A stretch of DNA of 64,000 nt. Source: Candidatus Pacearchaeota archaeon. GTDB lineage: Archaea > Nanobdellota > Nanobdellia > Pacearchaeales > GW2011-AR1. Of this stretch, positions 17,849 to 43,224 are shown in pieces. The stretch is from contig VGKQ01000001.1 of assembly GCA_016866995.1 (NCBI GenBank), forward strand, positions 16,194 to 80,193, read 5' to 3'. The translations under genes were made by a program, and so were the position numbers. Position 1 is the stretch's first letter, and the number at the start of each line of letters is the position of its first letter. The notes beneath the pieces were generated by a model. It ran no database searches. It had not been told where the DNA came from and worked only from the letters and a program-made list of their open reading frames with translations.

Positions 17849-20449
17849 TTAAGCAGTTACTACTGGATACACATTGCTTGTACCTAATGTAGTTGCGTGG
17901 TTCTCTTTCAACTTTGCTACAGCGTTCTTTGTATCAGCTGCCTCATATCCAGCAACTAACACAGCCACTTTGGCAGAATTGTAAGGAGATGCCACTGCCT
18001 TGATTAAGTACTGTCCTACTCCAACATTTGTTTTTGCTGTCCAAGCAGCGCCACAAACCGGAGCAGTTGCATTTGCATCCACTATCTTCCTTGCAACAGT
18101 ATTTACACAGCTTCCACCAACAACAAGAAGGTTCTTGTCTTTGACAGAGTCAACATCTGCGTCTTTGACAACTTTTATAGTGCCTCCGCCAGCAGATGCG
18201 CTTCCAGCAACAGTTACTGCGCTTGGTGACTTGAAAAGCACATCTACATACATCTGCTCATCCGGATAACTTACACTTACAGCATAGTTTGTTCCTGTTG
18301 AAACATCTCTTTCAACAAGAGTTCCGTAAGTTGTAACTCCCTTGCTTTTGTAGGTATTAGTCTGCATTGTCTGCAAGCTTAATACTGTATCAGCTGAAAC
18401 AGGAGTTCCTACTCCCGGCATGTTTGTTGAGCCACTTGTGTAAATTGTCAATGGAATGCATACATAGTTTCCATTTGTGTCTGAAAGAGTTTTTTCCTCT
18501 TGTATTAACACAGCAGGCCCATATGTTGCATTAACAATACACTCTGCCCACAAAGCATTGTCTGTATTAATTCCTTCTATAGTTGCAGTGCTGTTTGTGC
18601 TTAGCACATTAAGTGTGTAATTTACATTTCCAAACTTTGTGCTGCTTTCTCCAATCGCCTCTGTATCATTTCTTATTAACACAGTCTGTCCTGCCTTGTA
18701 TGTAGTTAAGTCATACAATCCAGGCAGCGAGTAAACAGTCCCGTTTGTAAGAGTGACTGGTGAGATAAACGAGAGCCACTCTCCATTTTTCAGCTTTATT
18801 CTTGGGAATACAGTAATCTGTGTTCCTGTAACAGCTGTAGAAGAGACTGCGCCCCAAGTCAAATTAACAACCCATTTTGATGAGTCTGTATTGCTTGGAT
18901 CAGTTGCAGCATTGTATTCAGCTCCACCGATTGTTCGTGCGCTTAAAGTTGCATTTCTTGTTCCTGTTGCAAAGTCATAATCTGTTCCAGTTATGACATC
19001 TCTCAATCTTGTATAGTCATTGGTGCTTGTGCCTGCTCCTATGCTAATGACTTGGAATATTCTTCCTTCATCATTGTCATTTGCAATTATCCAATCTCCA
19101 ACTTTGGCATTTGCTCCTTCAATGTTCCAGATTGTATAATTTGCATCTGTTGCGAGCTGTGCAAGCAAAGCCCCGTTTGCTATCAAGTCCCTGTCTCTTG
19201 CAAAAGCAAGCTGTTTTTCACCAGCAGTTCCAGCCAAGTATGATGTAAACTTGACTCTTGCTGCGACTGAATTATCAGTGTCAACAAGGATAGTGTCTCT
19301 GGCTGTTGAATTCATGTCAGGTGTTGCTGCTGCAAACTCTACTTGCACTCCACCAAGCACTCTATCTGTAAAGCTTTGTCCAACTGTAAGATAGTCGCCT
19401 GTTGCTGACTCTGCAGCCTGTGCAATTGTAACAGAGTTTATTCCAGAGCCGCTTGTTCCGCTAACTAATGCAGCTGTTCCAAGGATTGTTGTGTCATCTG
19501 CTCCATACTTAACAGCCTGATTATTCTCTAAATGCAGTGTCTTTGCTCCTAAAAGCAAATCAGCACTTGATAATGTTCCTGTTTTTGTTGCATGGAACAA
19601 ATCTTTCACATAAACCTGGAAATCTCCTGCAAATTTGTAGCTTGAACCTTTTGAAACAGTTTTTCTTACTCCATCAACTTCAATTGTTGCTGAAGTTGTT
19701 GAAGAAGTTCCAACAAGCAAGACAGTATGGTCTTTATCAGCCACTTTGACTGTCTTTGTCTCGCCTTCATTCACTGATGCTCCGGCTCCAGACCCATATA
19801 GATATAATGTGTCTGCGTCAGAATTTGCTCCAATTGTAAACTCTGAGCCAAGCATCTTTATTGTTGCAGTTCCAACTACACTTGAATCAGAGACATTTAA
19901 TGTCTTTGAAAATGTCAAGGTGTAATTGTACAAAGGTGTTGTTCCCTGGTAGCCTGTATCAACCAACAATCCAGGATCCATGCTCTCCCCGCTCTTTGAA
20001 AAGGTAACTTTTCTGTTGCCTCCAATCACAGTGATAGTCTGAGTATATTTATACTCTGTTCCTGAATTATCATATGCAGAACCATCTGCAAGGATGTTTG
20101 GCATATGATCTTTTGTAAGAATAGTTCTTGCTGCATTCAAAGCGCTGTTCATATACAGCTTTTGACTTGATGTAGCAAGATTTACACTATCTCCGCCAGT
20201 TGTAGTTGTTGTTGTAGTTGATGTTCCTACACTAACAAGAGCTTGCAGGGCTGTTTGAGTTGAAACAGCTGCATCCCAGTCACTTACAGCGCCAACCTGG
20301 CTTCCAGAAGTCACAACAACTGCGCCATCAGCAGCTCCTCCAACAACGAATGGTGCCGGATAGTTTGCTGCAGCTGCAATTCCTAAGGTGCTTCCTAGCA
20401 TTACAACACTAGCTAACACTGATGCAATTTTTCTGAAATTAAATTTCAT
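17849..20449 (-). CDS. Major S-layer protein
   Basis: MKFNFRKIASVLAS signal, AANYPAPFV N-terminus, C-terminal NLLVVGGSCVN...VAGYEAADT; Thr/Ala/Gly-rich; strong SD. Confidence 0.88.
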   Translation of the reverse strand: MKFNFRKIASVLASVVMLGSTLGIAAAANYPAPFVVGGAADGAVVVTSGSQVGAVSDWDAAVSTQTALQALVSVGTSTTTTTTTGGDSVNLATSSQKLYMNSALNAARTILTKDHMPNILADGSAYDNSGTEYKYTQTITVIGGNRKVTFSKSGESMDPGLLVDTGYQGTTPLYNYTLTFSKTLNVSDSSVVGTATIKMLGSEFTIGANSDADTLYLYGSGAGASVNEGETKTVKVADKDHTVLLVGTSSTTSATIEVDGVRKTVSKGSSYKFAGDFQVYVKDLFHATKTGTLSSADLLLGAKTLHLENNQAVKYGADDTTILGTAALVSGTSGSGINSVTIAQAAESATGDYLTVGQSFTDRVLGGVQVEFAAATPDMNSTARDTILVDTDNSVAARVKFTSYLAGTAGEKQLAFARDRDLIANGALLAQLATDANYTIWNIEGANAKVGDWIIANDNDEGRIFQVISIGAGTSTNDYTRLRDVITGTDYDFATGTRNATLSARTIGGAEYNAATDPSNTDSSKWVVNLTWGAVSSTAVTGTQITVFPRIKLKNGEWLSFISPVTLTNGTVYSLPGLYDLTTYKAGQTVLIRNDTEAIGESSTKFGNVNYTLNVLSTNSTATIEGINTDNALWAECIVNATYGPAVLIQEEKTLSDTNGNYVCIPLTIYTSGSTNMPGVGTPVSADTVLSLQTMQTNTYKSKGVTTYGTLVERDVSTGTNYAVSVSYPDEQMYVDVLFKSPSAVTVAGSASAGGGTIKVVKDADVDSVKDKNLLVVGGSCVNTVARKIVDANATAPVCGAAWTAKTNVGVGQYLIKAVASPYNSAKVAVLVAGYEAADTKNAVAKLKENHATTLGTSNVYPVVTA

Positions 20450-21363: not shown

Positions 21364-21831
21364 TCACTTGCATACTTCAATCTCTTCCCTTATTCCTCCA
21401 AGAATCATTACACTTGCTCCTGTTTTTGTGCCAGAGCAATTTCCATATCTTGCCTGAACAAGCGTCCTGTTCGACTCAGAATAAATCTTCAAGTTATATG
21501 AATTAATGCTTCCAATACTCCAGCTTTTTTTCATCATATCTGAGATTGTCTCATTCAAAATAGAACAAGCTGTCTTATTGTTCAGGCATTTTCTTCCTGA
21601 ATTGCAAGAAACAATCAAATCTTTCAAATTGTTTCTTTTTTCAGGGCTTTCATAGCAGTTTGTTGTATATTTCAGGCTTGATTGTATAAAAGTTTCAAGT
21701 TCTGTATTTATGAGCTTTTTCTGCGGCTGTTTCAGGCTTATTGCAAGGAAAATAAGAGATATAACTACAACAAGGACTATGATAAGCACAAATCCCACAA
21801 TTTCCTCCTGCCCTTTATTTTTTATTTTCAT
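21364..21831 (-). CDS. Type IV pilin-like protein (class III signal peptide)
   Basis: KNKG/QEEIVGFVLIIVLVVVISLIFL. Confidence 0.75.
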   Translation of the reverse strand: MKIKNKGQEEIVGFVLIIVLVVVISLIFLAISLKQPQKKLINTELETFIQSSLKYTTNCYESPEKRNNLKDLIVSCNSGRKCLNNKTACSILNETISDMMKKSWSIGSINSYNLKIYSESNRTLVQARYGNCSGTKTGASVMILGGIREEIEVCK

Positions 21832-21884
21832 CTTATTTTTTATTTTATCTTGCAAACTTATTTGCCAATATATTTATTTTCATC

Positions 21885-22376
21885 TTATGCTTGTGTCTTA
21901 TATCCTATTATTAATTTAGCTACTTCACACTGGAAATAAATATAATCATTCTCATTCACCCTGTGACAAAGAGAAACAAAGCTTGAAGCAGTGCTCTCCC
22001 CGCCTTTTTTATTGCTGTAAATCTTTATTAAATTGCAGTACGGATAATTTGATATAGTGCATAAAATTTCTGTATTATTGCTGGGATAAACTGTTCTTAT
22101 TTCTATGCTTGAGACTTGCCATAATTTCTGAAATACTGTTCTGTTTCCAAGTATCATTGCCCTGTCCCCATCAATGCAATAATCTCCGCACGAGAATTCA
22201 GCGCTTGAAGCAAGAAAACCAGCCATTTCAGTAGCCCTGTTCTTTTCTTCAATATTAACTTCCTTTTTCAAGTCCTGCATATAAATTACAAGATAAAACA
22301 ATCCAGCCAATATAAAAAATATGAAAACAGCCATTATCATAAATGCCATCTGATGAATTTTCAACTGGGCTTTCAT
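21885..22376 (-). CDS. Type IV pilin-like protein (class III signal peptide)
   Basis: Likely start MKA/QLKIHQMAFMIMAVFIFFILAGLFY. Confidence 0.75.
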   Translation of the reverse strand: MKAQLKIHQMAFMIMAVFIFFILAGLFYLVIYMQDLKKEVNIEEKNRATEMAGFLASSAEFSCGDYCIDGDRAMILGNRTVFQKLWQVSSIEIRTVYPSNNTEILCTISNYPYCNLIKIYSNKKGGESTASSFVSLCHRVNENDYIYFQCEVAKLIIGYKTQA

Positions 22377-22410
22377 TTTAAAACACCAAATCTCCCTGCA
22401 AAAATATAAT

Positions 22411-23391
22411 TTACCATATTTTGCACCCCTCTTTTGCAGCATCATTTGCTTGTTTAACAGTTTTTGCAGCTTGTCTCAAATTTTCAAAGCCAACAGAATT
22501 TGTTGTGCTTCCAGCAGCATTAGCAAGATTTATCAGGCTTGTTGACATGACATTCCCGCATCCCCTTGTTGACATAAATCTTAATTCATCAGAATAAACA
22601 TAGCATATCTGCTGTATTCTTAGCATCAGTCTTTTCAAGTTGCACTCATATATTTCCGCATCTGAAAATATTGCTCCATATATCAAGCTCCCTGTAAATT
22701 TTAGTGTCTTGCTGTTTTTTGTCACATATCCTGTTTCATACTCATTCCCGCATCCAAAACCAGTGCAGGAAGGATGAACATTTATCTCACAATTTCCAGA
22801 ATTAAAGCAGACTTTTGTGTCAGGTGTTGAGCAGTTTTCAAGCTTTATGTCAAGATTCAAGGCTCTTATTTCTTCTTTTATAAAATCAGGAGAATTAACA
22901 AAGCAATATTTTTTTGTTGTCAGGAAAATTATTTCTGAAACTTTAAACGGCATCTCAAACGGCTTTGAGAAAAAGCTTATTCTCTTTCCTTGCTCTATTT
23001 CTCCTGAAAAAACATACTTATTGCTTAGAGTAATATCAAACCCGGGCTTTGGCCATTCTTTCATAAATCCTGATTTCTGAGAAATTGAAAAGTCCTGGCT
23101 TCCAAATGCTCCTGAACTCGAGCACTTGTTATAAATTCTTGTTTCAGTGTTCAAGTCAACATGAGTTGATTTTCCAGATGCCAAGCCAGTCTCAAGCGGA
23201 TTGAACAAAATTGTAAGCTGCTTGGCTATCTGAGTATTTGACTTGTATTCTCCCTGATTAATAAGTTGTGTTGCTCCATATATTGCAAGAAACAAGACGC
23301 ATGCCCCAACTAAAATTGCAAACAGCCATGTAAAACTGAATTCAAATCCTCTTTTATTTTGCAAGATAATTTTTTGAATTTTTCTTGCCAT
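22411..23391 (-). CDS. Pilin-like protein (class III signal peptide), Cys-containing ectodomain
   Basis: NKRG/FEFSFTWLFAILVGACVLFLAIY. Confidence 0.75.
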   Translation of the reverse strand: MARKIQKIILQNKRGFEFSFTWLFAILVGACVLFLAIYGATQLINQGEYKSNTQIAKQLTILFNPLETGLASGKSTHVDLNTETRIYNKCSSSGAFGSQDFSISQKSGFMKEWPKPGFDITLSNKYVFSGEIEQGKRISFFSKPFEMPFKVSEIIFLTTKKYCFVNSPDFIKEEIRALNLDIKLENCSTPDTKVCFNSGNCEINVHPSCTGFGCGNEYETGYVTKNSKTLKFTGSLIYGAIFSDAEIYECNLKRLMLRIQQICYVYSDELRFMSTRGCGNVMSTSLINLANAAGSTTNSVGFENLRQAAKTVKQANDAAKEGCKIW

Positions 23392-23575: not shown

Positions 23576-24100
23576 TTATTTTATCCTGACAAGCCCCTCA
23601 TAAAATCCTTTTTCTATTGTCAAGCTTGCTTTCTTGTTTGGAATGCAGTATGGGTTGTCTCGAGATGTAATTGCAGTTATATTTATATGCTGTATCTCAA
23701 TTCCCCGAAAATCCTCGCACGCGCTTTTTACAGGATAAAAGAAAAGATTTCCATTTTCATCTCTCTTGTATACTGTCAAGTTTTCATAGAAATTCCTGTA
23801 TTTCCCTGATTCTCTTCTTGATGTGTCAAGAAAGCAGACATAATCAATTTTTCCAGGAAGGCTTATTGAAAAATTTCTCTCGCTCCTGTCCGAGTCCCAA
23901 GCATCATTTACAGCATCCTGTAAATCTTGTTTAAATATTCCTTCCTGTATCTCATCAGAAATTGTGCATTTATCCTTGCTAGGATTCCAAAATATAAAAA
24001 TTGCAACTATCGCTATAATTATGAAAAATACAATAAGAATTATAGAAAATATCATTGAAAATGGCAATCCTAAAATCTGCGCTTTCTTCTCTTTTTTCAT
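23576..24100 (-). CDS. Type IV pilin-like protein (class III signal peptide)
   Basis: KKA/QILGLPFSMIFSIILIVFFIIIA. Confidence 0.75.
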   Translation of the reverse strand: MKKEKKAQILGLPFSMIFSIILIVFFIIIAIVAIFIFWNPSKDKCTISDEIQEGIFKQDLQDAVNDAWDSDRSERNFSISLPGKIDYVCFLDTSRRESGKYRNFYENLTVYKRDENGNLFFYPVKSACEDFRGIEIQHINITAITSRDNPYCIPNKKASLTIEKGFYEGLVRIK

Positions 24101-24569: not shown

Positions 24570-24600
24570 AATTTCTTACATTTTTCAGATATTTAATTTT

Positions 24601-28071: not shown

Positions 28072-28072
28072 T

Positions 28073-30545: not shown

Positions 30546-30581
30546 TAAAAATAATCACTAAAAAGCATACTTTAATCAGCC

Positions 30582-30608
30582 TTTTATAAATGAAACTCTT
30601 TTAATACT
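30582..30608 (+). repeat. 27-bp perfect direct repeat, right copy
   Basis: Identical to 28073-28099. Confidence 0.9.
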
Positions 30609-30646
30609 GAAAGTCTTATTAAAATTCCTTGTTTTCCTGATATTTT

Positions 30647-30982
30647 ATGCCAAATATTATTGAATTATATTTTTTTCAGAACAAGTATAATCAATCTGAA
30701 TCAAAAGAAGCGAAATTTATTTCAAGGATTAAAGAAATTTTTCCAGAAATTCAAGTAAAAGAGATTGATATTGTAAAGGCAGCAACGCCTGAATTTTCAG
30801 AAATTGCTCTTGACTTGATAAAAAATCAAGGAATTATTTCTCTGCCAATTGTAATAATAAATGACAAATTAATAAGCAAGGGGAAATTGCCAGATATTCA
30901 AGAAATAATTGAGGAATTAAGGAGCAAGCAGGATATCAGCGAGAAAATAAGAGACATGTTTAACAAATTTCAGGATTTTTAA
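30647..30982 (+). CDS. Thioredoxin-fold/ArsD-like small protein without Cys
   Basis: GIISLPIVIINDKLISKGKLP resembles the ArsD/glutaredoxin C-terminal motif. Confidence 0.55.
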   Translation: MPNIIELYFFQNKYNQSESKEAKFISRIKEIFPEIQVKEIDIVKAATPEFSEIALDLIKNQGIISLPIVIINDKLISKGKLPDIQEIIEELRSKQDISEKIRDMFNKFQDF

Positions 30983-31197: not shown

Positions 31198-33573
31198 TTA
31201 TGAAGCAGAGTTGTACATTCTTGCTATAATTGTGCAGTCAGCAGGATTTGGCTGATTTCCACTTGAGTCTACGCATTTGATATAATAGTTTGTGCTTGTC
31301 TTCCAGTCAGTATAATGATATGTTGTGTTTGCATATAATAATTGTGTTCCGGTGTTTAATGCAAAATTGCACTTCTGATTTACAGCTTCTGAATAATAGC
31401 AAGTTGATTTCTCATTTGTCTCAATTCTTAATTTTCCTCCTTCATTATACAGCCTTGTAACAAACGGAGCCTGCCTGTCTACTTGCACTGTAAATTTTGT
31501 GGAATTGTAGTCTGCATTATTTCCCAAATCAACGCACTTGAAATAATATGTGTATGTTCCAGGAGGCAGCTGCTGATTTTGCTTGTGTTTGCTTGAACCA
31601 GTTTCAAACATTTTTATGTAGCTTGAATCAGTATTTTGCTGGGAATAATAGCACATTGCATCTCCATTATTAAAACCGTTTCCTGTTTCAACTTCCAAAT
31701 CAACAGAAACAACATTTGCATATCCCTGAACTGTTCCGTTCGGTCCTGTTTTCAAAATATTCACAGGCTGTGTTCCTTTCAATATAAATGGATAGCTTTC
31801 TGCATTTGTATTTCTGTCATTTTGATTTTCCAGTGTTGGCTGGTCTCTGCATCTGAAGAAAAACTGATTGTCTTTTCTGTTTTCCAAGCCATTTAAAGTT
31901 GTATAGCACTTGTAAAGCATATTATTATTTATATTCCAGACATTCTGCGCACAAGTCATTGTATTTTCCATCAAATCATAATCTTTATCCTGCTTGCTCC
32001 ATCTGCAGTCAGCAGGCTCGTTTGTATAAACTTCTATATCTGTCTCATTCAAGCCAAACTGGAAAGGCATTCCAGACGGAATGCTTGTCCCAACAATTTC
32101 AGGAGGAGTTGTGTCAGGCCCTTTTTCAACGCAGAATCTTATTGCAAATTCATCCTCATTTATATTTCCATTCCCGTCCTGGCATCTTACATATAAAGTG
32201 TATATTCCGTCATGCTTGAGTTCAGGAGATGCATTCTGCATTGCACTTGGGCTTGGAAGTCTTAATGTCTGGCTGTGATTGTAGTCATACAAATTACTCT
32301 CTCCAAAATAAAACTGCATGTTTGAGTATGCGTTCTTGACATCTCTTACGTTTACAGTGTGATTATAATCTATTTTGCATTGTGTAGGCTCATTAGTTGA
32401 AATTCCAAATGTTATTGGAGTAAAAGCTTTAATACAGCCATCTGAAGCAGCATCTCTTGTAACTCTCATTCCTGTTCTAGGCGGACGTATGTTTACATCT
32501 TTATACGAGTGTCCTTTGCTTAAAACTTCCAGCCACGGAGCTATTGTCGGAGATGTTACATCATGAGGATTTTTCCAGTAGCACAACAATCCTTCTTTGC
32601 TTGGAACAACATCACATCCCTGCCCGAGTGATTTGCATCTGTATTCAGAACACGGACGCATTAAATCTTTATTGCATAACTCACAATATTTTCCTCCTGT
32701 TGGAGCTTCATATGGCTTGCATTCAAATACAACTTGTTTCTTGCTTTCTTTTTTCCATAACATATTCAAGACAAGCAATCCAACTCCAACTGCAATTCCC
32801 AAGCTTAAAAGCTGAGCCTGTCCTGCATTTGCCAAGCCAAGAGGCAATCCTTCAGTAGCTTTCGCACCCCAGACAGCTTTTCCTCCTCCCCACATCTCAA
32901 GATTTAATCCTTTTCCTGTTAAAATAGGTGATAATATCTGATATGTCATTGCTCCTGCAAATGCAGCCACTCCAAGAGCTTTCTGATTATTCTTGCTCAA
33001 TCCAAACATTCCTCCTCCAAGATATCCCACAAGCCCTATAACTCCTGCATAAAATAATGAACTGATAATAGAATCAGCTGCCAATGCTCCGAGAATATTC
33101 GAGCTTGCAGCAGCTCCTCCTGTCCCAGATGTTCCTACTTCTACAAGTTTGTTGCCTGCTCCCATTTCATATATTTTGTTTTTATACATAAGCTGACTTA
33201 AATCAGCATTAAATCTTACTTCTGACAGAGGAACTGCTCCTATGCCAGGTATATTAACACTATTTCCAAGAAGAAATCCTGAAAAAGGGTCTCCGGGCTT
33301 CATAATTCTTGTAAAAGCTTCTGCAACCTTCACAGGAGGGGCAACAGGGGGCGCAGGCGGAGGATTTGTAGCAGTAAGAATAATATTTGTTGTTGGTGTA
33401 GAATGATAGCTTAATCTTAAATCCATTGGTTTCAAAGATTCTTCTATGCTCGGCAAGCCAGGTACTTGAGCATCAGCAAGAGAAATCAAAAATGAAAAAG
33501 CAGCAACAGCTATAATTAAATCTGCAATTATAAAAATTGCTTTACCCCTTTTTCCCTCTTTTTTATTTCTCAT
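31198..33573 (-). CDS. Cys-rich surface protein: Gly/Ala-rich hydrophobic region plus Ig-like C-module (paralog of 36989-41053 C-half)
   Basis: Signal peptide; CKPYEAPTGGKYCELC...CSEYRCKSLG; repeated DxTxP...YxxCxDxxGN modules. Confidence 0.8.
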   Translation of the reverse strand: MRNKKEGKRGKAIFIIADLIIAVAAFSFLISLADAQVPGLPSIEESLKPMDLRLSYHSTPTTNIILTATNPPPAPPVAPPVKVAEAFTRIMKPGDPFSGFLLGNSVNIPGIGAVPLSEVRFNADLSQLMYKNKIYEMGAGNKLVEVGTSGTGGAAASSNILGALAADSIISSLFYAGVIGLVGYLGGGMFGLSKNNQKALGVAAFAGAMTYQILSPILTGKGLNLEMWGGGKAVWGAKATEGLPLGLANAGQAQLLSLGIAVGVGLLVLNMLWKKESKKQVVFECKPYEAPTGGKYCELCNKDLMRPCSEYRCKSLGQGCDVVPSKEGLLCYWKNPHDVTSPTIAPWLEVLSKGHSYKDVNIRPPRTGMRVTRDAASDGCIKAFTPITFGISTNEPTQCKIDYNHTVNVRDVKNAYSNMQFYFGESNLYDYNHSQTLRLPSPSAMQNASPELKHDGIYTLYVRCQDGNGNINEDEFAIRFCVEKGPDTTPPEIVGTSIPSGMPFQFGLNETDIEVYTNEPADCRWSKQDKDYDLMENTMTCAQNVWNINNNMLYKCYTTLNGLENRKDNQFFFRCRDQPTLENQNDRNTNAESYPFILKGTQPVNILKTGPNGTVQGYANVVSVDLEVETGNGFNNGDAMCYYSQQNTDSSYIKMFETGSSKHKQNQQLPPGTYTYYFKCVDLGNNADYNSTKFTVQVDRQAPFVTRLYNEGGKLRIETNEKSTCYYSEAVNQKCNFALNTGTQLLYANTTYHYTDWKTSTNYYIKCVDSSGNQPNPADCTIIARMYNSAS

Positions 33574-33578
33574 CTTTT

Positions 33579-34268
33579 TTATTTTGTAACTAACATAAAT
33601 TCCTGCCTTCCGGCAGTGACACCATCAATTTCCAATTCAACAGCGCATGAAAGTCTTAATCCTCTTGCACCGCTTTTATTGTCAAAAAATTGCCTTGAAT
33701 AAATCATTCCTCCCGGGCTTACTTCATTTTCTGGCTCTCTTTCTATATCCTTTCCGTCGTCATACCAGACAAGCCTCATTTTTGCGGTTCTGCCTGTCTG
33801 ATTTAATCCTATTACAGTAATATTCTCTCCTTGGTTATATTGCCTTTTTTCAAAGCCAGACAACTCGCTTTTTCTGAGAAATTTATCTCCATTGTCAATC
33901 CAGTCATTGCACAAAATTAAAACAGGCAATCCATTTTCAAAATGAGTTTGCTGTACTTGCATAAATCTTCCAACATAAATATCCATTTTATTTGTCCATG
34001 AATTATACCTGTAAACATTATCTCCTAATCTTGCAAACTTCCAGTCAGGACTTACTAAGCAATTTGCAGTTCTTACATTCCCAACATATATTTCTCTTCC
34101 AGCAGGCACCCAGTTAATAGAATTAATATCAACAGCTACTGGCTGGCATTCCTCTCTTGGTGGCATATACGAGCCAAAATATCCCCCACCCCAGCATCCT
34201 GCAATACTTGCAGCTGCAGCACTTGCAAGTGCTGCCAATCCTCCCTTCATAAAATTTCTTCTGTCCAT
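33579..34268 (-). CDS. Putative Tat-signal lipoprotein
   Basis: MDRRNFMK twin-arginine motif, IAGC lipobox. Confidence 0.7.
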   Translation of the reverse strand: MDRRNFMKGGLAALASAAAASIAGCWGGGYFGSYMPPREECQPVAVDINSINWVPAGREIYVGNVRTANCLVSPDWKFARLGDNVYRYNSWTNKMDIYVGRFMQVQQTHFENGLPVLILCNDWIDNGDKFLRKSELSGFEKRQYNQGENITVIGLNQTGRTAKMRLVWYDDGKDIEREPENEVSPGGMIYSRQFFDNKSGARGLRLSCAVELEIDGVTAGRQEFMLVTK

Positions 34269-34330
34269 TTTCCTTGTTTTTCCTTATATAAACTTATATT
34301 TAAATCTTTTGTTTTGTTATTATTTAAAAG

Positions 34331-36157
34331 TTACATCACTTTTAAGCTTTCTAATAATCCCTGATTTATTGATTTATTTTGAATTTCAGCACTGGCTGTA
34401 GACAATCCTAAAAGCCAGTCTCCCCCCTTAAGCAAAGGCAAAAATAATTTTGTTCCAGAAACTCCAAAGCCACTTGAAAGATATTTGTAAACTCCTTCTG
34501 AGCCAGTGCAGTCTCCCAAAGCCCTGCAGATTTCTTCATTTTTCTTCTGCCAAGTATCACCCCCGCACTCGCAATTCTCAACACAATCCTCACTCCCTCC
34601 AAACAATCCTTTTTTCTCATACTCAATTGTGCACGCAGCATTTCCAAGGCTGCATTGTGATTGCGCCTCTCCTGCCTGCCAGAATTTCAAGCCAGGAGGA
34701 TAATTAGGCACACAAACCGCTCCTTTCAAAGTTTTTGGTTCATTTTCATCTTCTTCATCTCCTCCAAGAATTCCTGAAGAAGTTGTTTTCTCGGGCTCTG
34801 GAAAGCTTCCTGAACTTGAGCTTGTGCTTGCCTGAACTCCTGCAAGAATGCTTGTTCCAATTGCCCCTTCAATCCACTGGCAGTCTCCTTTGTCAACATT
34901 CTCACAGTCTTCTTTTGTCTTGAATGTCACGCAATTCTGCCACCTGTTTGCAATACACCCTGCCTGCTGAAAATCTCCTTTATCAGTTGTAATTTTATCT
35001 TGTAAACAAATCTCTGCTCTTAAATCAGCGCACGGCTCTACAAGCTCCTCGCCAGCAACGCAAATATGCTTCCAGTATCTTGAGCCAGCAGGATCTTTTC
35101 CTTTCCCTGTTCCATCATCATATATGCACCAGCTTTCACCATGTCGATAATCTTTTCCATCTTTTGTGTTCTTGCAGTTCAAATCCCTGCATATAAAATC
35201 TCCATATGTCGGCCTTCTTGCATCCTTGCTTGCATCATACTTCCTGCAAAAACTTCCGCCAAAATAATCACAATTTCCACAAGATACAGAATTTGCATTC
35301 GAGTTTGTATTTCCAGCCCCGCACGAATCTTTCTTTTCAATAATTTTTCTCCAGTATGCAGGCTCATCAATTTTTGCAGCATCATAAATATTCGCAGGAT
35401 TCCCGCACGTGTCCTTGAAATAAACTTCATCTCTTCCATCCACACATCCTGTTTTAACTTCTCCTTTGCTGTTTCTTCTTGCGCAGTTTGTTCCAAGCTC
35501 TTCAGCAGTGCACAAATAATCTTTGTGAAAGCTCGAGTTGCCTGTATAATTTCCTGTTTTCTTTTTCATTGCCTCGCACTCTCCTTTTGTTGTGAACTTG
35601 CATGTTTTTGTAAAATCCTGCTCATACACGCACGCTCCTTTGTCCTGGGCATGCGCAAGTGCAATGCATGCTGTTTCTGACTGAACATCTGTTCTGAAAT
35701 TAATCTGAACTCCAAAAAATGAAGAAAGCTTTTTGCATCTTACAAGAGTTACAAATGCTGCCTGGTCGCTGAATACACAGCATCCTAAATTGCATTGCGG
35801 AATTTCACATTTTGCAGAATCTGCCCATGTCCCATTGCTCGCCTGGCACACTAATTGCGGAGTGTTTTCCATGCATATTCCTTCCTTGCTGTCATAACAG
35901 CATCCCTGCCTGCAGTAAGATGTTGCATCGCATGATGTTGGAGTTATTCTAAAGCCAGAATCACAAGATTGTGTCAATGCATTCTGGCACCAAGCTCCAT
36001 AAATTGTTTTTTCACAGCAGACATTTGTCTGCTGTGCTGATGTTTGTGTTAATACAATAATAGACAATAAAAAAGCCATTCCAATAATTACAAAAGAAAA
36101 TATCATTCTCTTGATTAATTCTCTTTTTCTTTTTTCTTTAATCTTTTTTTGTTTCAT
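34331..36157 (-). CDS. Cys-rich secreted protein (paralog of 36989-41053 N-half)
   Basis: CCEKT, GCCYDSKEG, CVDGRDEVYFKDTCGNPANIY, GESWC, CRALGDC. Confidence 0.8.
   Translation of the reverse strand: MKQKKIKEKRKRELIKRMIFSFVIIGMAFLLSIIVLTQTSAQQTNVCCEKTIYGAWCQNALTQSCDSGFRITPTSCDATSYCRQGCCYDSKEGICMENTPQLVCQASNGTWADSAKCEIPQCNLGCCVFSDQAAFVTLVRCKKLSSFFGVQINFRTDVQSETACIALAHAQDKGACVYEQDFTKTCKFTTKGECEAMKKKTGNYTGNSSFHKDYLCTAEELGTNCARRNSKGEVKTGCVDGRDEVYFKDTCGNPANIYDAAKIDEPAYWRKIIEKKDSCGAGNTNSNANSVSCGNCDYFGGSFCRKYDASKDARRPTYGDFICRDLNCKNTKDGKDYRHGESWCIYDDGTGKGKDPAGSRYWKHICVAGEELVEPCADLRAEICLQDKITTDKGDFQQAGCIANRWQNCVTFKTKEDCENVDKGDCQWIEGAIGTSILAGVQASTSSSSGSFPEPEKTTSSGILGGDEEDENEPKTLKGAVCVPNYPPGLKFWQAGEAQSQCSLGNAACTIEYEKKGLFGGSEDCVENCECGGDTWQKKNEEICRALGDCTGSEGVYKYLSSGFGVSGTKLFLPLLKGGDWLLGLSTASAEIQNKSINQGLLESLKVM
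35384..35443 (+). repeat. 60-bp perfect repeat, copy 1 (copy 2 at 40292-40351)
   Basis: ATAAATATTCGCAGGATTCCCGCACGTGTCCTTGAAATAAACTTCATCTCTTCCATCCAC. Confidence 0.9.
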
Positions 36158-36172
36158 TTTTTATAGATTATT

Positions 36173-36940
36173 TTATTTATTCACATATTTGTCAACACCA
36201 TAACCAGGAGGCCAGCTCAAGCTTCTTGTGGCAAACACAAGTTTTTCTCCTGTAATTCTGTGAGTTAAAGTATAAATCTTGCTTCCATCCTCAAGCTTCA
36301 TTTTCTCAATTTTAATATCAGGATAATACATCATAAATGTTTCTGGAGCAGAATCTCCTTCCCTTGCCTCCCAGTTTAAGATACTTGAGGCAATCATAAT
36401 CAAATCATACATCTCACTGTTCCTGGCAATGCTAAATTTTTCATAATTCTCGCTTGCTCCTTTTGTCAGAGTTACTTTCGAGTTAATTGTTATTTTTATG
36501 CTTCCAGATTCAATTTCTGTTGAAACTTCGGGCTTGCTTGAACTTGTTTGATATCCTTTGCTCTTGTAATCATTTATAAGCTCATTTAAACAAGTTTCTG
36601 CCTTATCTTTCATATAACTTGAGATTTCTTTTTCAACATGCTCCAATAATAATGGCTGCTGCATTGTGCATGTTTTATAATACTCATTTGTATAGCACAA
36701 ATATTCAATTTTATTTTCTTTATACATAATAGAATGCTCTGGCTCAAGGCTTCCCCCCCTTTCTGTAATATTTTCTATTATTCCCATATGCTGATTCATG
36801 CACTCTTCAATATAGCCAGAAGGAGTTTTTGGAGCTGCCCCTAAACTTGATAATCTTGGATAAAAAATAATTATTAACAAGCCGATAAGAACAATTGCTA
36901 TAATTATAAATATTGTCACCTGCGATTTTTTATTTATCAT
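36173..36940 (-). CDS. Pilin-like protein (class III signal peptide)
   Basis: NKKS/QVTIFIIIAIVLIG; paralog of 41202-41969 (YIExC, GG, YLCY, CxMQxPL). Confidence 0.8.
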   Translation of the reverse strand: MINKKSQVTIFIIIAIVLIGLLIIIFYPRLSSLGAAPKTPSGYIEECMNQHMGIIENITERGGSLEPEHSIMYKENKIEYLCYTNEYYKTCTMQQPLLLEHVEKEISSYMKDKAETCLNELINDYKSKGYQTSSSKPEVSTEIESGSIKITINSKVTLTKGASENYEKFSIARNSEMYDLIMIASSILNWEAREGDSAPETFMMYYPDIKIEKMKLEDGSKIYTLTHRITGEKLVFATRSLSWPPGYGVDKYVNK

Positions 36941-36988
36941 TTTCCCTCTTTTTTCATAATCATTTTAATATTCTGCCTATTATAAATA

Positions 36989-39900
36989 TTATGCTGCTCT
37001 ATTATATGTCCTCACTTTAATTGAACATCCATAAGGCTCATTTCTCCACGCATCTCTGCACTTGATATAATAATTCTGCTGGCTATTCCATTCAGCAAAA
37101 TGCTCCTGAGTAAATCCTCCCTGCATTAATGTTCCATTTTCAAATATAAACCCGCAGTTCTTGTCTGTTCTCGAGTAGGCACATTCTGAATTTTCATTTG
37201 TGAAAATATACAGGTCTCCTTGTGAATTGTAAACTCGGGTTACATATGGCGCAGAAGTGTCAACACTCAATTTGAAATTTGAGCTTGCAGTTGCATAATT
37301 AAATCCAGCATCAACACATATAACATCAAGATTATATTCGCCTGCCGGCATTGATGTCAGTGTTGCTCTATGCACATTTGAGCCAGTGTTTCTAAATATA
37401 TCATACCAGTTTCCAATTACCCACGAGCATATTGCCTTTCCATTTTCTGCTCCTCCTGAAGTTTCTGCTCTCAAGTTAATAGAAATTGGCTCAGAGCCAA
37501 AAGAAAATGTCCCATTTGGCTCAATTTTAGTTATAGTCAGCTGGGTTTGTGGCACTTTTAATTTATAGACATAACTTTCTACATTTACATTCCTGTTTGA
37601 TTGATTTGCAGTTCCTTCCCATTCTGGATGATCCTTGCATTTAAAATAAAATGTATTCTCGCCTTTTGCCAAATTTGTTAAAGTTGTATTGCACTGCCAT
37701 AATAAACTATTTGAGTTGCATACAAATGAATTTTCCATTGCTGTATAATTCTTATCCTGTTTGCTCCATCTGCAGTCAGCTTTTTCATTTACAAAAATAT
37801 TTATTTCCTTGTCAGTTTGATTGAAAGCAACAAAAGCATTATTTAATGGATTGGTTGATACTATCATCGGCGCTGTTTTGTCAGGCCCCTCTCTTGTGCA
37901 TATATCAATTACATATTCCTGGCTGGATTTTCCAAAAGCATCCTGGCATCTTGTATAAAGCCTCATACTTCCAAGTTTATCAAGTACAAATTGTATTTCT
38001 GCATCTGACTGGTTTAAACCAAGCAGTTCTGCAGCAGCTTCTCTGCTTGGCATTGAAAACCCCATGGAATGATTTTCAAGATATAAATTTGAGTCTCCAA
38101 AATATTCAGCCATGTCTTCGTATTTTGCCTTGCTTGCAACATCAATCTTGCACTGGGAAATTTTATCTGTTTTTATTCCAAACAAGAAAGGAGTAAATAC
38201 AGGAATGCAGCTTCCATCTTTCTCTCTGATTTTAAATCCAGTATTGCTCACATTCATATATGAAAAATTTCCATTTAAAATTTCATACCATGGAGAAATT
38301 ACAGGAGCCTGCCCATTATCTGCAACAGCTGAGCATTTTTCCTGAGATGTTCCCTCGTTAAAAAACCGGCACGCTGTTCCAAGTGACTGGCATCTATATT
38401 TTGAGCACGGCTTTAATGCATCTTGTGAACATTTGTCACAATCACTTCCGCCAACAGGAGGCTGCCACGGCTTGCATGTATATGTTACTTTAACTGTCTT
38501 GCATACTTTTCCAACCCCCATGATTTCGAAAAATGACATGATAATAATTGCCACAATTACTCCAAAAACTATATTGCCTATACTTAATCCTCCAATTCCA
38601 ATTCCTGAAGCAGAAATACCTCCTTCGAGAGCTCCAGTTAAAGCATAAGTTAAGGCTTGGCCAAAACTCCAGCCATATACATTCATTCCATAAATAGTAG
38701 CAGCAGTATATGCTGCAGTCACTCCTGCAGCAGTTCCTGCAAACATTCCTGTTTGGCTTGTCTGAATTCCAAGCATTCTTAAAATAAGAGGAGCAATTGT
38801 CATGATTATTGCTGTAACCACTAATAAATTTGAAAACGCTGTTATAACTGCGCCAGGAGTTACTCCTGAAGTTATCGGCGCTGGAGGAGTTGTTATTCCT
38901 TCTGCAGCTGCAATTTCTCCAACACTTCCAACACTATTGCCAGCACTATCTAACAAAATTGTATCTGCAGCCAAATTTATTGACTCTCCCCCCATTGCCG
39001 TAGGAGCAACACTTATTTCAGGGCTATATGGAACATAAAATAAACTAGGCCCACTTTGTCCAGTAAGTTCAATAATAGCCATTTTTGTTCCTCCTTCACT
39101 AAGATAAGCAAATCCTTGAAATGTTGCAGGCACGCTTGTAGCACCAGATGCAGCCCCTCCTGCCCCTCCACCCCCACTAAAAATTCCTGCAAACATAGAA
39201 CTTTCTCTTGCTCCAACCACCCCCTTAGTCAGGCTGGAAAGAGCAGTTCCTCCATTCATATAATCAATAATCAACCCAGCTCCTGCAATTCCCAACCCAT
39301 ACATTAAATTTGCTTCTTTCTCTTTTTCTCCTCCAGGCATTCCAAGCTCCTGCAATGAAGTTAAGTTTCCTACAAGTTGTTGAATTGTTCCTGATTCTAC
39401 TTTCTGTCCAGCAACAGGAGTTGCATATTTTTTATACTGCTCTAATAAAATTTTGGGAGCTCCAGAAACAGTGTATCCTGCATCTGTAACTTTTCCAAGA
39501 ATATTTACATAAGCACCGCAATCTCCAAGTGAAATGCACAAGTCATTCATCTGCTGTGTGAATCCAATTTTCTCGCAGTTGCAGTTCTGCTCGCACTTGC
39601 ATTTCCCCTTCATATCTTTAATATAAATGACAGTGCATGTCTGAGTAGCCATTCCGCAAATCTGCTCAGCAGCTTTTCCTCCTGCTTCTGTTGACAAGTC
39701 AAATCCTTCTGGATATTTTGGAGCGCAAATGTCAAACTTAAATCCCTTGTCAACATTTACATTTTTTACAAAACAATCAAATCCAGTGCATCCATCTTTA
39801 TTTGCATTTGAGTTTATGCACTTCTGCCACTGATTCACTCGGCAAGAAGCACTTGAAAATTCCCCTAATGCAGTAGAAGTATCACTCTGAACACAAATTT

Positions 39901-41053
39901 CATTCCTGAAATCAGCGCACGGCTCTGATTTCACCTCGCCTTCAATGCAGGAATATTTAAAATGCCGAGAGCCAACAACATCACTTGAAAATTTATTACC
40001 TTCAACAACACCAATGCTTCCGTCATAAACACACCAAGATTCCCCGTTTCTTCTATCCTGCTTTCCGACATTGGCAGGAGCATTTTTACAAGATAAATCA
40101 GAGCAGATATAATTTCCTTTGTCTGGCTTTATTCCTGTCTCTTTATAATCCTTGCACTTGCTACCAAGATAATAATTGCAGTTTCCGCAAGTCTTGCTTC
40201 CTGCGTTTCCGTTTGCAGATTCAAGAAAACACGAATTTTCTTTTGGAATTATTCTCTCCCAGTAGCTCTGGTTGTTTATTTGGGAGACATAATAAATATT
40301 CGCAGGATTCCCGCACGTGTCCTTGAAATAAACTTCATCTCTTCCATCCACGCATGTTGTTTCTTCTGTTTTAGTGCACGAAGAATTCAGCAAACTTGAT
40401 GTGCATAAAATATCCTGGTAGAAATTATTATTTCTTCCTGTTAGTGATGAACACTCCTGTCCTGTCAGAATTTTGCATCCGCCATTATTAAGCATACAAG
40501 CTCCCTTTTTCTGCGCCATGCCAAGTGCCAGGCAGCTGAATTCTGTATTTACTGCTGCCCTGAAATCTGTTCTTAATCCTGATTCTGCAGACAATTTCTC
40601 GCACCTTCTGCTCGTAACAAACATTGTGTTTCCTCCAAGAATACAGCATCCAAGCCTGCATTCAGGAACAGAATTTATATTGCAGTTTTCGCTTTCATCC
40701 CAGCTCCCATGCTGTCTTATACAGGTTGCTTTTGGAGAATTTACAGAACAGGTTCCTTCTTCAGCATCATAACAGCACCCTGTCTGATAGTCAGAAAGTT
40801 CAGAGCATTTTGTAGGCAGGCATGTTTTTGTGCATTCTTGTGCGCAAGTGCTTGAAGGATAATCTTGTCCAAGTCTTCCATATTTGTCTTCAGGACAGCA
40901 TTGTTCATTTTCAGCGCTTGCTTCATCAATGCTTGCAATCATCCATGCAAAAGCAAAAGTTGAAAGAACAAGAATAAATATCTGCAGATAGCTTACTCCT
41001 GCTTTTCCTTTTATCAATTTATTTCTGTTTATTTTTACAATTTCCTTTTTCAT
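36989..41053 (-). CDS. Giant modular Cys-rich surface protein (1354 aa) with central Gly/Ala-rich hydrophobic region
   Basis: Signal peptide, Cys-rich N-module, hydrophobic core about aa 580-850, Cys-rich plus Ig-like C-module. Confidence 0.82.
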   Translation of the reverse strand: MKKEIVKINRNKLIKGKAGVSYLQIFILVLSTFAFAWMIASIDEASAENEQCCPEDKYGRLGQDYPSSTCAQECTKTCLPTKCSELSDYQTGCCYDAEEGTCSVNSPKATCIRQHGSWDESENCNINSVPECRLGCCILGGNTMFVTSRRCEKLSAESGLRTDFRAAVNTEFSCLALGMAQKKGACMLNNGGCKILTGQECSSLTGRNNNFYQDILCTSSLLNSSCTKTEETTCVDGRDEVYFKDTCGNPANIYYVSQINNQSYWERIIPKENSCFLESANGNAGSKTCGNCNYYLGSKCKDYKETGIKPDKGNYICSDLSCKNAPANVGKQDRRNGESWCVYDGSIGVVEGNKFSSDVVGSRHFKYSCIEGEVKSEPCADFRNEICVQSDTSTALGEFSSASCRVNQWQKCINSNANKDGCTGFDCFVKNVNVDKGFKFDICAPKYPEGFDLSTEAGGKAAEQICGMATQTCTVIYIKDMKGKCKCEQNCNCEKIGFTQQMNDLCISLGDCGAYVNILGKVTDAGYTVSGAPKILLEQYKKYATPVAGQKVESGTIQQLVGNLTSLQELGMPGGEKEKEANLMYGLGIAGAGLIIDYMNGGTALSSLTKGVVGARESSMFAGIFSGGGGAGGAASGATSVPATFQGFAYLSEGGTKMAIIELTGQSGPSLFYVPYSPEISVAPTAMGGESINLAADTILLDSAGNSVGSVGEIAAAEGITTPPAPITSGVTPGAVITAFSNLLVVTAIIMTIAPLILRMLGIQTSQTGMFAGTAAGVTAAYTAATIYGMNVYGWSFGQALTYALTGALEGGISASGIGIGGLSIGNIVFGVIVAIIIMSFFEIMGVGKVCKTVKVTYTCKPWQPPVGGSDCDKCSQDALKPCSKYRCQSLGTACRFFNEGTSQEKCSAVADNGQAPVISPWYEILNGNFSYMNVSNTGFKIREKDGSCIPVFTPFLFGIKTDKISQCKIDVASKAKYEDMAEYFGDSNLYLENHSMGFSMPSREAAAELLGLNQSDAEIQFVLDKLGSMRLYTRCQDAFGKSSQEYVIDICTREGPDKTAPMIVSTNPLNNAFVAFNQTDKEINIFVNEKADCRWSKQDKNYTAMENSFVCNSNSLLWQCNTTLTNLAKGENTFYFKCKDHPEWEGTANQSNRNVNVESYVYKLKVPQTQLTITKIEPNGTFSFGSEPISINLRAETSGGAENGKAICSWVIGNWYDIFRNTGSNVHRATLTSMPAGEYNLDVICVDAGFNYATASSNFKLSVDTSAPYVTRVYNSQGDLYIFTNENSECAYSRTDKNCGFIFENGTLMQGGFTQEHFAEWNSQQNYYIKCRDAWRNEPYGCSIKVRTYNRAA
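40292..40351 (+). repeat. 60-bp perfect repeat, copy 2
   Basis: Identical to 35384-35443. Confidence 0.9.
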
Positions 41054-41201
41054 TTTTTATATTTATATAACCTATTCTGCTTCTCTTCTAAAGAGAAGAT
41101 TTATACAAGATAAATCGCGCCTTTCTTCTTTACGAAAAGCACCCTGTTCTTTTCATTTTTTCTCTTTTTTTTCATTGTTCCTTTTTACAAATTTATATTT
41201 A

Positions 41202-41969
41202 TTAAAATCCTGCAGGAATTGCGCAGCTTCTTATTGCAATATTTAGTTTTTTGTTTGTGTATCTGTCATTAATAATATAAATTTTTGATGAATTTTCTCC
41301 AGAGCCGACTGGTTTTTTATCTATGCTGAAGTCTTTATGCATAATCATATAACCAAGATATTCAAAGTTGCAGTATTTTGCCTCTTCATTTGCAATATCC
41401 ATAGCAACAATTCCAAGATTATAAAGAGGAGAGTTGAATGCTGTTTTAAATGAATCAAATCTTCTTGTTTCCTGGTTTTTTTCAGTATTAAAAATCCTGT
41501 TTATTTTTATCTGAACATTGCCTGTTCCAAGAATTGTGCTTACATTCATTCCTTCCATTTTTACATTATGACTTTTGGCTTCTAATTCTGTTTTTAGTTG
41601 ATTAAAGCACAAATCAATTTTTCCTGTAATATAATTTGTAATCTCGTTTTCAAAATGCTCTATAAAAAGAGGAGTCTGCATAATGCACGGTTGATAATTT
41701 GCTTTAATATAGCAGAGATATGCAACTTTTGTATCATTATATAGCTTATAGTTTACAGGATTCAAGTAGCCCCCCTGAGGAAGCATTATATCTATTGCTT
41801 CAGATGCAGCATCTCGCGCGCATTTTTCAATATATGCCTGCGGATTGTCCATGCTCGGCCTCTGCATTTCTGGTTTTGTCTTTGATATTATAATAAAAAA
41901 TATTGCAATTCCCGCCACAATTATTACTGCAATAATTATGAATATTGTGATTTGCGCTTTATTTTTCAT
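41202..41969 (-). CDS. Pilin-like protein (class III signal peptide)
   Basis: MKNKA/QITIFIIIAVIIVAG; ATG overlaps upstream HTH stop (ATGA). Confidence 0.8.
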   Translation of the reverse strand: MKNKAQITIFIIIAVIIVAGIAIFFIIISKTKPEMQRPSMDNPQAYIEKCARDAASEAIDIMLPQGGYLNPVNYKLYNDTKVAYLCYIKANYQPCIMQTPLFIEHFENEITNYITGKIDLCFNQLKTELEAKSHNVKMEGMNVSTILGTGNVQIKINRIFNTEKNQETRRFDSFKTAFNSPLYNLGIVAMDIANEEAKYCNFEYLGYMIMHKDFSIDKKPVGSGENSSKIYIINDRYTNKKLNIAIRSCAIPAGF

Positions 41970-42151
41970 TTTGCCAGCCACAAGTTCACCCCCTCTTTTT
42001 TTATTCTCTCAACCTTTCCTTCAATAACAAGCTCGAGAAATATTTTCTCAGCAGTATTCCAAGAAATTCCAAGCTCTTTTGCAAGCTCAGAAGTAGTCAT
42101 CACCTTTTCTTCCTTTAACAGTTTAATCACCTTTTCTTTATGAATATTCAT
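41966..42151 (-). CDS. Small winged-HTH protein (61 aa)
   Basis: TTSELAKELGISWNTAEKIFLELVIEGKVERIK. Confidence 0.82.
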   Translation of the reverse strand: MNIHKEKVIKLLKEEKVMTTSELAKELGISWNTAEKIFLELVIEGKVERIKKEGVNLWLAK

Positions 42152-42498: not shown

Positions 42499-43224
42499 TC
42501 AGTCTTCGTTCTCAACTCTAGGAGCGAGAACAAAAACAAGCTCGGCTTTCTCAGCCTTAAATTCAATTTTTAAAGGATAATCATCAGAAAAATTTATCTT
42601 TATCTTGTCAGTAAGCTTTCCTGCCTTTGAGAATTTCTGCAGGTATTCAAGCGAGTATTTTGATTTTGCATTTATCCCATCTATCTTCACCTCATCGCCT
42701 GAAAACTCATTTCTCGCAGAATTTAATCCTTTTGCTTCAATTATAAACTTGCTGTCCTTGACTGCAAAAGAGCACGAATCAGCGACAATAGAACAGTCTT
42801 CAATTGAATCTGAAAAATCCTGAGAAGACATTTCAATCTTGCTTGAAAAATCCAGATTTGGCACTTGCTTGTCCTCTGCTTCTATATCTATTAACGCAAG
42901 AGTAAAAACTCTTTTTATCTTGTCTTGTATTTCTATTTTCAGAGTATTATCTTCTGTCTGCATTATCAAGCTCGAGCCAGCCCCCGCTCTTCTTAATATT
43001 GATTTCAAACTGTCCAAGCCCACCCCCAGTGTCTCATCTGTAACTTCAAAACTTGAGAATGCGTGGTTTGGAAGAATAAATGATACAAGAGCAACATTTG
43101 CGGGGTCTATTGCAACAATCCTCAATCCATCCCTGTCCACTTTTATCTTCACCTCTGTTACAAGTTCAGATATTATTCCAATAACATCTGACAGTATTTT
43201 TGGGCTGTCTAATTTTACTAGCAT
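42499..43224 (-). CDS. pcn: DNA polymerase sliding clamp PCNA
   Basis: AIDPANVALV, SKYSLEYL, DYPLKIEF, LAPRVE. Confidence 0.96.
   Translation of the reverse strand: MLVKLDSPKILSDVIGIISELVTEVKIKVDRDGLRIVAIDPANVALVSFILPNHAFSSFEVTDETLGVGLDSLKSILRRAGAGSSLIMQTEDNTLKIEIQDKIKRVFTLALIDIEAEDKQVPNLDFSSKIEMSSQDFSDSIEDCSIVADSCSFAVKDSKFIIEAKGLNSARNEFSGDEVKIDGINAKSKYSLEYLQKFSKAGKLTDKIKINFSDDYPLKIEFKAEKAELVFVLAPRVENED

Follow-up and report, generated by a model that had tools for sequence, protein, structure and literature searches.

The 64,000-nucleotide stretch of Candidatus Pacearchaeota archaeon DNA analyzed here (contig VGKQ01000001.1 of assembly GCA_016866995.1; hereafter the window) contains a locus in which pilin-like genes alternate with genes for giant Cys-rich proteins. 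Judged from comparison with its relatives, this locus is a real, conserved type 4 filament-associated surface module, not previously characterized. The complete giant of the window carries a Cys-rich N-module and a Cys-rich C-module, with a hypervariable hydrophobic core between them. The comparative evidence supports well two structural predictions, namely that the scaffold is tethered to a pilin-like protein and that the core is clamped by disulfide bonds. Our tentative preference, held at somewhat short of an even chance, is that these parts form a pilin-tethered cell-contact complex whose core hairpin would insert into a membrane after export, probably that of a partner cell.

All seven open reading frames (ORFs) of the operon described in the initial annotation are present on the minus strand, in the order, at the positions and with the lengths first given. 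Successive ORFs are separated by -16, 148, 48, 15, 62, and 5 bases. The genes, and the parts of the giant protein, are as follows.

41966..42151, minus strand: winged-helix protein of 61 residues, present only here and there in relatives (5 of 52 related loci by tblastn)
41202..41981, minus strand: pilin-like A, 259 residues from GTG, 255 residues from ATG at 41969
36989..41053, minus strand: giant protein, 1354 residues, 68 Cys, with N-terminal helix, N-module, core, Cys segment, and about four immunoglobulin-like (Ig-like) repeats
39509..40924, minus strand: N-module of the giant, residues 44-515, holding Cys485 (39599-39601) and Cys506 (39536-39538)
38510..39316, minus strand: hydrophobic core of the giant, residues 580-848, hypervariable and Gly/Ala-rich
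38309..38503, minus strand: Cys segment behind the core, holding Cys851 (38501-38503) and Cys860 (38474-38476)
36992..38308, minus strand: Ig-like repeats of the giant, with a Cys pattern and many N-glycosylation sequons
36173..36940, minus strand: pilin-like B, 255 residues, a paralogue of pilin-like A
34331..36157, minus strand: N-module-only half, 608 residues, 45 Cys; Cys544 (34526-34528) is the equivalent of Cys506
33579..34268, minus strand: lipoprotein-like gene with an RR motif, 229 residues, a passenger
31198..33573, minus strand: core and C-module half, 791 residues, 21 Cys, with three hydrophobic stretches in residues 160-274; Cys285 (32719-32721) is the equivalent of Cys860

The initial annotation saw one full and one split copy of the same architecture, and pairwise alignment agrees. 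The 608-residue protein matches giant residues 2-536 (34.9% identity, E 2e-110), the 791-residue protein matches residues 704-1354 (34.4% identity, E 2e-103), and the arrangement recurs in relatives. A broken gene or an assembly error was rejected as the origin of the split, as many genomes hold intact pairs of N-only and C-only proteins, each with its own N-terminal helix. The 608-residue protein had been said to end at the shared C..LGDC motif; it in fact continues for 58 residues beyond Cys550. Most N-only relatives have a shorter tail than this one (34334-34507). The G..N that usually follows the motif is missing here, and no better frame was seen. In the homologue alignment the N-module is marked by invariant Cys residues and an NGESWC..GSRH motif. 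The AlphaFold 2 (AF2) model of the giant has predicted local distance difference test scores (pLDDT) mostly above 90 in the N-module, of 93-98 in residues 854-903, and below 50 in residues 570-825; it places strands at 471-479, 485-489, and 850-860. The Ig-like repeats, about four by the first count, show a repeated Cys pattern, while their Big_13 matches stay below the cut-off in most proteins and reach it in one homologue. The C-module carries 1.98 N-glycosylation sequons per 100 residues; in 496 proteins that have no hydrophobic helix the figure is 0.49.

The residues that flank the core vary together. Of 94 giants, 93 have Cys506 together with Cys860, and the remaining one lacks both but keeps Cys466 and Cys512. 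Across split pairs, where the equivalents lie on separate genes, both are present in 32 of 34 and both absent in two (L047 and L049), losses that may share one event; this count was read by eye from 35 rows, after one non-cognate pairing (the second L047 row) was dropped. Because Cys506 and Cys860 are lost together, even across split genes, it is likely that the core is a disulfide-clamped loop and that the split halves are a linked heterodimer. A second pair, Cys485 and Cys851, is optional: among 120 giants both are found in 29, one alone in 4 and 0, and neither in 87, a co-occurrence that resembles that of the intramodule pairs 52/83, 93/124, and 487/491. On a FastTree tree computed without these two columns, the pair requires 8 and 6 changes taken singly (in either order) and 8 changes as a joint state. 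The parity of the Cys count agrees between the N- and C-modules in 113 of 120 giants, and the count is odd in 62 of 66 N-only modules and 15 of 17 C-only modules. Cys485-Cys851 and Cys506-Cys860 are the predicted partners; we infer these clamp bonds from co-variation. A Cys506-Cys860 bond would join the 608- and 791-residue halves into one unit. A cytoplasmic location for the C-module was rejected on the strength of the clamp and the sequons together.

Pilin-like A and B share 32% identity (E 6e-44). To score class III signal peptides we used a relaxed FlaFind-like rule of our own, which looks for a K/R-G/A motif before a hydrophobic helix. It is satisfied by 67 of 78 A/B proteins, with Gln at +1 in 66, and by 6 of 8 forms fused to the scaffold, compared with 0 of 21 S-layer-like proteins, 0 of 31 PCNA proteins, and 0 of 15 primases. 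By this rule the motif of the class III signal peptides first proposed is kept in all five pilin-like and class III families and absent from the three controls. Pilin-like A has K-A followed by Q at +1, one hydrophobic helix, and an alpha/beta head; pilin-like B of the window, with K-S followed by Q, is absent from the genome-wide matches to the rule. In the giants themselves the motif is not conserved, as 30 of 92 pass the loose rule and the +1 residue is not fixed; a conserved SA near residue 46 suggests that the giant carries an ordinary signal peptide. The AF2 model of pilin-like A has a pLDDT of 94.5. Foldseek returned 0 matches to it at E<=0.001, and the best VIA row had Z 6.5, an rmsd (root mean square deviation) equal to 3.6, and 95 aligned residues, with no pilin among 50 VIA rows.

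Genomic context and gene fusion point to a tether. An N-module gene lies within the next three genes for 76 of 78 pilin-like A/B genes, and directly next for 66. More distant genomes encode 23 proteins that join the A/B domain and the scaffold in one chain (L096, L197, L198, and L199 are cut or in pieces), and none of these has a second segment with a Kyte-Doolittle value of at least 1.6. Fusion provides indirect evidence that the unfused forms bind. It further shows that the parts of the scaffold on either side of the core position are extracellular, and that a scaffold can exist without a core. Inter-protein mutual information over 203 pilin/N-module pairs gave z 6.8, compared with 4.5-4.8 in two shuffles, although shuffling also removes kinship. 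The six class III proteins of the locus may be pilus tip components or membrane anchors.

The initial annotation suggested looking elsewhere in the genome for PibD, a pilus ATPase, and TadC. Other contigs of the source genome (C9, C27, C36, C46) do hold three PF00437 matches, four PF00482 matches, and one A24 peptidase, and behind two of the ATPases lie two platform genes each. Of the 1283 ORFs in this genome 43 pass the loose class III rule, and clusters of them on C9, C22, C27, C36, C43, and C53 may include the major pilins. A third A/B domain, extended to a protein of 615 residues, is encoded there at G000:C4:53992-55839; it is followed (G000:C4:55987-61104) by a secreted protein of 1705 residues and 28 Cys with no match to the giant.

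The core is the least conserved part of the protein, and its length ranges from 102 to 509 residues in those giants, 103 of 120, where motifs delimit it. Its identity is 42% compared with 72% and 64% for the flanks, and it is lowest in 55 of 60 close pairs, in keeping with the hypervariable core between conserved flanks first envisaged; four of the five exceptions involve one short protein. Helices were called from Kyte-Doolittle windows only. Cores contain one to seven of them, and zero to four segments at the 1.6 threshold. Among 195 cores with a strong helix, Lys plus Arg (K+R) account for 3.1% of the inter-helix loops, compared with 14.7% in 83 multi-helix proteins of the source genome, and 80% of the cores fall below the 5th percentile of that control; in the stretch after the last core helix the value is 19%. 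Gly plus Ala make up 36% of the core helices, compared with 15% in the control. The turn before the last core helix, examined in 193 cores, contains paired Cys in 33, a single Cys in 1, and none in 159, with 18 changes for 22 carriers on the tree. Hypervariable, Gly/Ala-rich, free of positive-inside charges, and often provided with a paired-Cys turn, the core is by these sequence criteria not an ordinary anchor. The initial annotation had named an ordinary conserved transmembrane anchor as the finding that would count against it, and the charge and Gly/Ala pattern is unlike that of ordinary membrane proteins.

Several core loops hold Cys-rich inserts. A LysM domain occupies a core loop (residues 776-820, E 2.6e-7) in the protein at L064:13027-17244. 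In two close homologues of the window giant, P0002 and P0003, a core loop is enlarged by about 150 acidic, Ala-rich residues while the adjacent hydrophobic helices remain similar. Extra giants without a hydrophobic core occur at L047:9430-12648, L048:9349-12330, L049:10089-13370, L073:3527-7549, and L088:3421-7215.

A match to the giant was found in 57 of 61 genomes, its own included, and in 36 of 36 other genomes of its family. Across a sample of 301 genomes of the phylum, a search with the N-module as a single protein matched 74, and one with its profile at E<=1e-6 matched 88. Presence mostly follows family lines, and several large families gave no match (0/36, 0/24). At least 640 of 669 pattern-matching stretches in the genome collection encode a relative; among the 80 matches listed the sources are Pacearchaeota, Woesearchaeota, Nanoarchaeota/Nanoarchaeia, and archaea. 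The N-module profile matches 1,806 clusters at 50% identity. No relative was confirmed among 11 viral candidates.

Gene order was compared in 52 loci, picked from good matches, many of them cut by contig ends. Pilin-like A/B genes are present in 51, and all four of the class III genes C to F in 23. The conserved order runs from PCNA through two pairs of a pilin-like gene and a giant, the second giant being whole or split, to four further class III genes and, at the end, an S-layer-like gene. The locus is thus shared across relatives, and absence of synteny, which would have counted against the initial annotation, was not what the survey found. The seven genes of the first operon are present, while the real unit is larger, taking in the class III genes and the S-layer-like gene at 17849-24100. 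The additional members in the window are listed here.

42499..43224, minus strand: PCNA, upstream neighbor, in 31 of 52 loci and on the same strand in 30
23576..24100, minus strand: class III signal protein C, 174 residues, motif in 24 of 29, in 28 of 52 loci
22411..23391, minus strand: class III signal protein D, 326 residues, motif in 17 of 29, in 28 of 52 loci
21885..22445, minus strand: class III signal protein E, 186 residues, motif in 27 of 27, in 26 of 52 loci
21364..21855, minus strand: class III signal protein F, 163 residues, motif in 20 of 26, in 25 of 52 loci
17849..20449, minus strand: S-layer-like secreted protein (a weak label), 866 residues, end of the conserved locus, in 20 of 52 loci

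In many relatives genes C to F and the S-layer-like gene come straight after the last giant. In the window about 7 kb of other genes precede them; those between the 791-residue gene and genes C to F (24237-30982) are unrelated and partly of low GC content, down to 23.5%. The 866-residue protein matches Pfam S_layer_C below the cut-off (E 0.017), and we take it to resemble the ends of Methanococcus S-layer proteins. It is a second S-layer candidate, since the window also encodes, at 13359-15533, a PACE-CTERM putative S-layer protein (NF033506) beside a pacearchaeosortase (NF033505), both above cut-off. This pair, together with the sources of the homologues, places the genome in Pacearchaeota. 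Elsewhere in the window (48164-49930) a secreted protein of 588 residues contains 31 Cys and has a hydrophobic helix late in its sequence and a tail rich in Pro, Met, and Arg; its homologues lie near the primase gene in 8 fetched loci. L070 has two copies, equal in their scores, of an 8-kb block that holds two giants and one pilin-like gene; either a tandem duplication or an assembly artefact would account for this.

The 229-residue gene, first taken for a Tat lipoprotein belonging to the operon, is better described as a passenger with a weak Tat label. It scores 19.3 bits against Pfam TAT_signal (cut-off 22.7) and 16.8 against TIGR01409 (16.7), TatC was not found in the source genome (85.6% complete), and 0 of 60 relatives have a match. 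We rejected it as a component for this last reason and because other loci have unrelated genes, or nothing, between the halves. Small genes between split halves at L042:10876-12137, L049:6211-7413, and L046:6589-7570 resemble, by eye, HEPN/nucleotidyltransferase and MazF-type toxin-antitoxin pairs.

The cell-contact reading that we tentatively prefer would work as follows. Pilin-like membrane proteins would hold giant, disulfide-locked scaffolds on the cell surface, the class III proteins presumably being processed by the prepilin peptidase of the genome and the pilin-like protein binding the scaffold in its unfused form. Between the bonded Cys residues the core would loop out as a greasy helical hairpin, inserting after export and probably not through ordinary Sec topogenesis, and it would grip the partner cell, plausibly the host, by entering its membrane. 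The signals of an ordinary anchor would place the C-module inside the cell and the clamp and sequons place it outside; entry of the hairpin after export would reconcile the two.

Several observations weigh against this reading. The hydrophobicity of the last core helix is very high (median 2.7), so that Sec transfer should halt there, in the membrane of the cell itself. Of 83 giants not cut by a locus edge, those with a strong helix have a pilin-like gene upstream in 29 of 48 cases and those without in 32 of 35, so self-anchoring fits. No core segment reaches 1.6 in 21 of 70 giants, the pilin-fused forms have no core, and the AF2 model shows no folded soluble bundle for it. The window giant itself lacks the paired-Cys turn, and the LysM domain occurs in the weakly hydrophobic type of paralogue. 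In the 61 stretches checked there is no ATPase and no confirmed platform gene; two BLAST hints of platform genes beside loci were rejected when Pfam did not confirm them. In every count, moreover, kin are not independent.

A strong last helix, the scarcer upstream pilin-like genes, coreless giants, and an unmodelled bundle leave nearly equal odds for a second anchor, and we consider this possible though still doubtful. The same pilin-linked adhesin complex would then have its clamped helices, as a hairpin or re-entrant, in the cell's own membrane, and the Cys-rich and Ig-like parts would recognize the partner. Outside the family, strong-helix giants have their own pilin-like gene in 12 of 31 cases compared with 27 of 29 for the rest; of 21 clamp helices in pilin-fused forms, 11 are amphipathic at p<0.1; and four helices, the commonest number (100 of 195), fit both modules lying outside, as any even number would. 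The anchoring proposed for the amphipathic helix of TraN, in the available part of its description (PMC9246713), is a precedent. Against such an anchor, K+R are wanting in the would-be cytoplasmic loops but make up 19% of the flank outside, the turn with paired Cys points to an oxidizing side, and split C-halves have three hydrophobic stretches behind a signal peptide (by eye, 14 sequences); nor need an anchor be the fastest-changing part of a protein.

An envelope-building or S-layer-associated structure, be it a stalk, a portal, or a complex that primes pilus passage, which does not act directly at the membrane of a partner, is unlikely. The fixed place of the module between PCNA and the S-layer-like gene favors it, as do a presence that tends to go by family and the lack of matches in viral contigs or plasmids, and S-layer-like components of type 4 filaments have been proposed to prime the envelope (PMC13705601, in the part of the text available). 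It accounts poorly for a hypervariable core with inserted binding-type domains, for pilin-fused copies that stand alone, away from the S-layer-like gene, and for the large families in which the N-module was not found.

We likewise give little credence to a host-penetration apparatus of Pacearchaeota and many Woesearchaeota, in which a type IV filament would bring up two paralogous disulfide-clamped scaffolds and their hypervariable hairpins would enter the host membrane and oligomerize there as a novel kind of two-component, contact-dependent pore that starts a cytoplasmic bridge, the split form being an interchain-disulfide heterodimer. A two-component pore, translocon, or fusion machine, with a strong and a weak paralogue oligomerizing in the host membrane as a conduit, seems improbable to us. 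Multi-copy loci contain one strong and one weak hydrophobic paralogue in 27 of 39 cases, the helices are Gly-rich and charge-poor, and such pairing of subunits is known from two-component alpha pore toxins and from type III translocators. Yet no fold matched, no amphipathic character could be measured in the helix of the weak paralogue (3 of 49 at p<0.1), both copies in the window reach at least 2.0, and the family exists without the core; the 23 pilin-fused relatives whose scaffold has no hydrophobic core mean that pore formation cannot be the basic job of the family. A type IV filament module serving DNA uptake or mating pairs is very improbable, for although PCNA and primase genes adjoin the locus and the anatomy is TraN-like, Pfam scans found no TraN, plasmids gave no match at E<=1, and the stretches checked contained no secretion ATPase (relaxase, VirB4, and ComEC were not searched).

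The locus is ordered, widespread, and without a database match, and it bears on the open question of how DPANN archaea attach to their hosts. In the available parts of the sources, the proteins of the attachment organelle of Nanobdellota YN1 are given as unknown (PMC11420986), and whether Nanobdellati build structures from their scattered type 4 filament genes is called unclear (PMC13705601). For the present locus there are now residue-level predictions that lend themselves to testing without a culture, namely that Cys506 and Cys860 form a clamp, that a bond between chains links the split halves, that the pilin-like protein binds the scaffold, and that the loop binds membrane. The open full-text literature, subscription papers lying outside it, does not describe the locus, although tables of PMC8204110 and PMC13705601 may list its families as unannotated entries; the available text of bioRxiv 10.64898/2026.05.13.725050 contains neither "pilin" nor "S-layer".

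Giants, pilin-like proteins, and class III proteins have no family in Pfam, NCBIfam, or the PDB sequence profiles. In the ESM Atlas only Nanobdellota clusters without a family name match at high score, with Big_13 in 10% of one cluster. Foldseek found 0 matches to the giant at E<=0.001 in the PDB and viral models, and its VIA rows include no toxin, translocator, or TraN; these absences are no proof of a new fold. Nor did the structures match known S-layer or adhesin folds with no membrane-active element, the other outcome that would have told against the initial annotation. The best VIA row is Fsx1 455-542 (Z 4.7, rmsd 5.2, 57 residues), with Z within background; the 872-residue model exceeds the advised search size. 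The next rows place CBM14 and fibronectin type I modules on giant residues 320-408, weakly, with Z up to 4.7. Domain IV of Fsx1 is chitin-binding-like according to the available part of PMC9259645. Glycan binding by the invariant NGESWC..GSRH region is at most a lead. With fusexin Fsx1 the giant shares only this match to the domain IV range, domains I-III and the fusion loop remaining unaligned, and the translocon or fusogen likeness first proposed is not supported, no such fold having matched.

Among better-known systems, bacterial minor pilins and PilY1/PilC form a priming and tip complex. The present locus has in common with them a minor pilin-like gene cluster with a giant non-pilin surface protein; it differs in having no beta-propeller or vWA match, mostly one pilin-like gene per giant, fusion forms, and a hydrophobic core. 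Alpha pore-forming toxins and type III translocators are known for hydrophobic hairpins and paired subunits. A Gly/Ala-rich, charge-poor hairpin in a soluble protein and paired paralogues are shared with them, whereas there is no sequence or fold match and the scaffold here is disulfide-rich, beta-rich, and apparently tethered to pilin-like proteins, with small disulfide-bearing beta domains flanking the core.

TraN, as described in the available part of PMC9246713, is a disulfide-rich surface protein. It binds membrane through a helix, its variable region, specific to the partner, forms a beta-sandwich tip, and its C-terminal part folds onto its N-terminal part. The giants would resemble it in their disulfide-rich surface character, in a C-terminal part predicted to return to the N-terminal one, in a putative membrane-binding helix, and in having a variable region. 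They differ in that the variable part is a hydrophobic loop and in that TraN belongs to a type IV secretion system, and no sequence match links the two: the giants scanned gave no Pfam row for TraN (PF06986), and residues 421-915 gave no tblastn match in plasmids at E<=1. The Epd-like archaeal type 4 filament system 1 consists, in the available parts of PMC13705601 and PMC4858521, of pilins and adhesin-like proteins. A clamped hydrophobic loop is absent from those parts of its descriptions, and the present locus differs further in having no ATPase within it and no database match. It shares with system 1 several class III proteins together with large secreted or S-layer-like proteins, and an ATPase with two platform genes occurs twice in the source genome; such a scattered organization of type 4 filament genes is described as usual for Nanobdellati (PMC13705601, in the part available).

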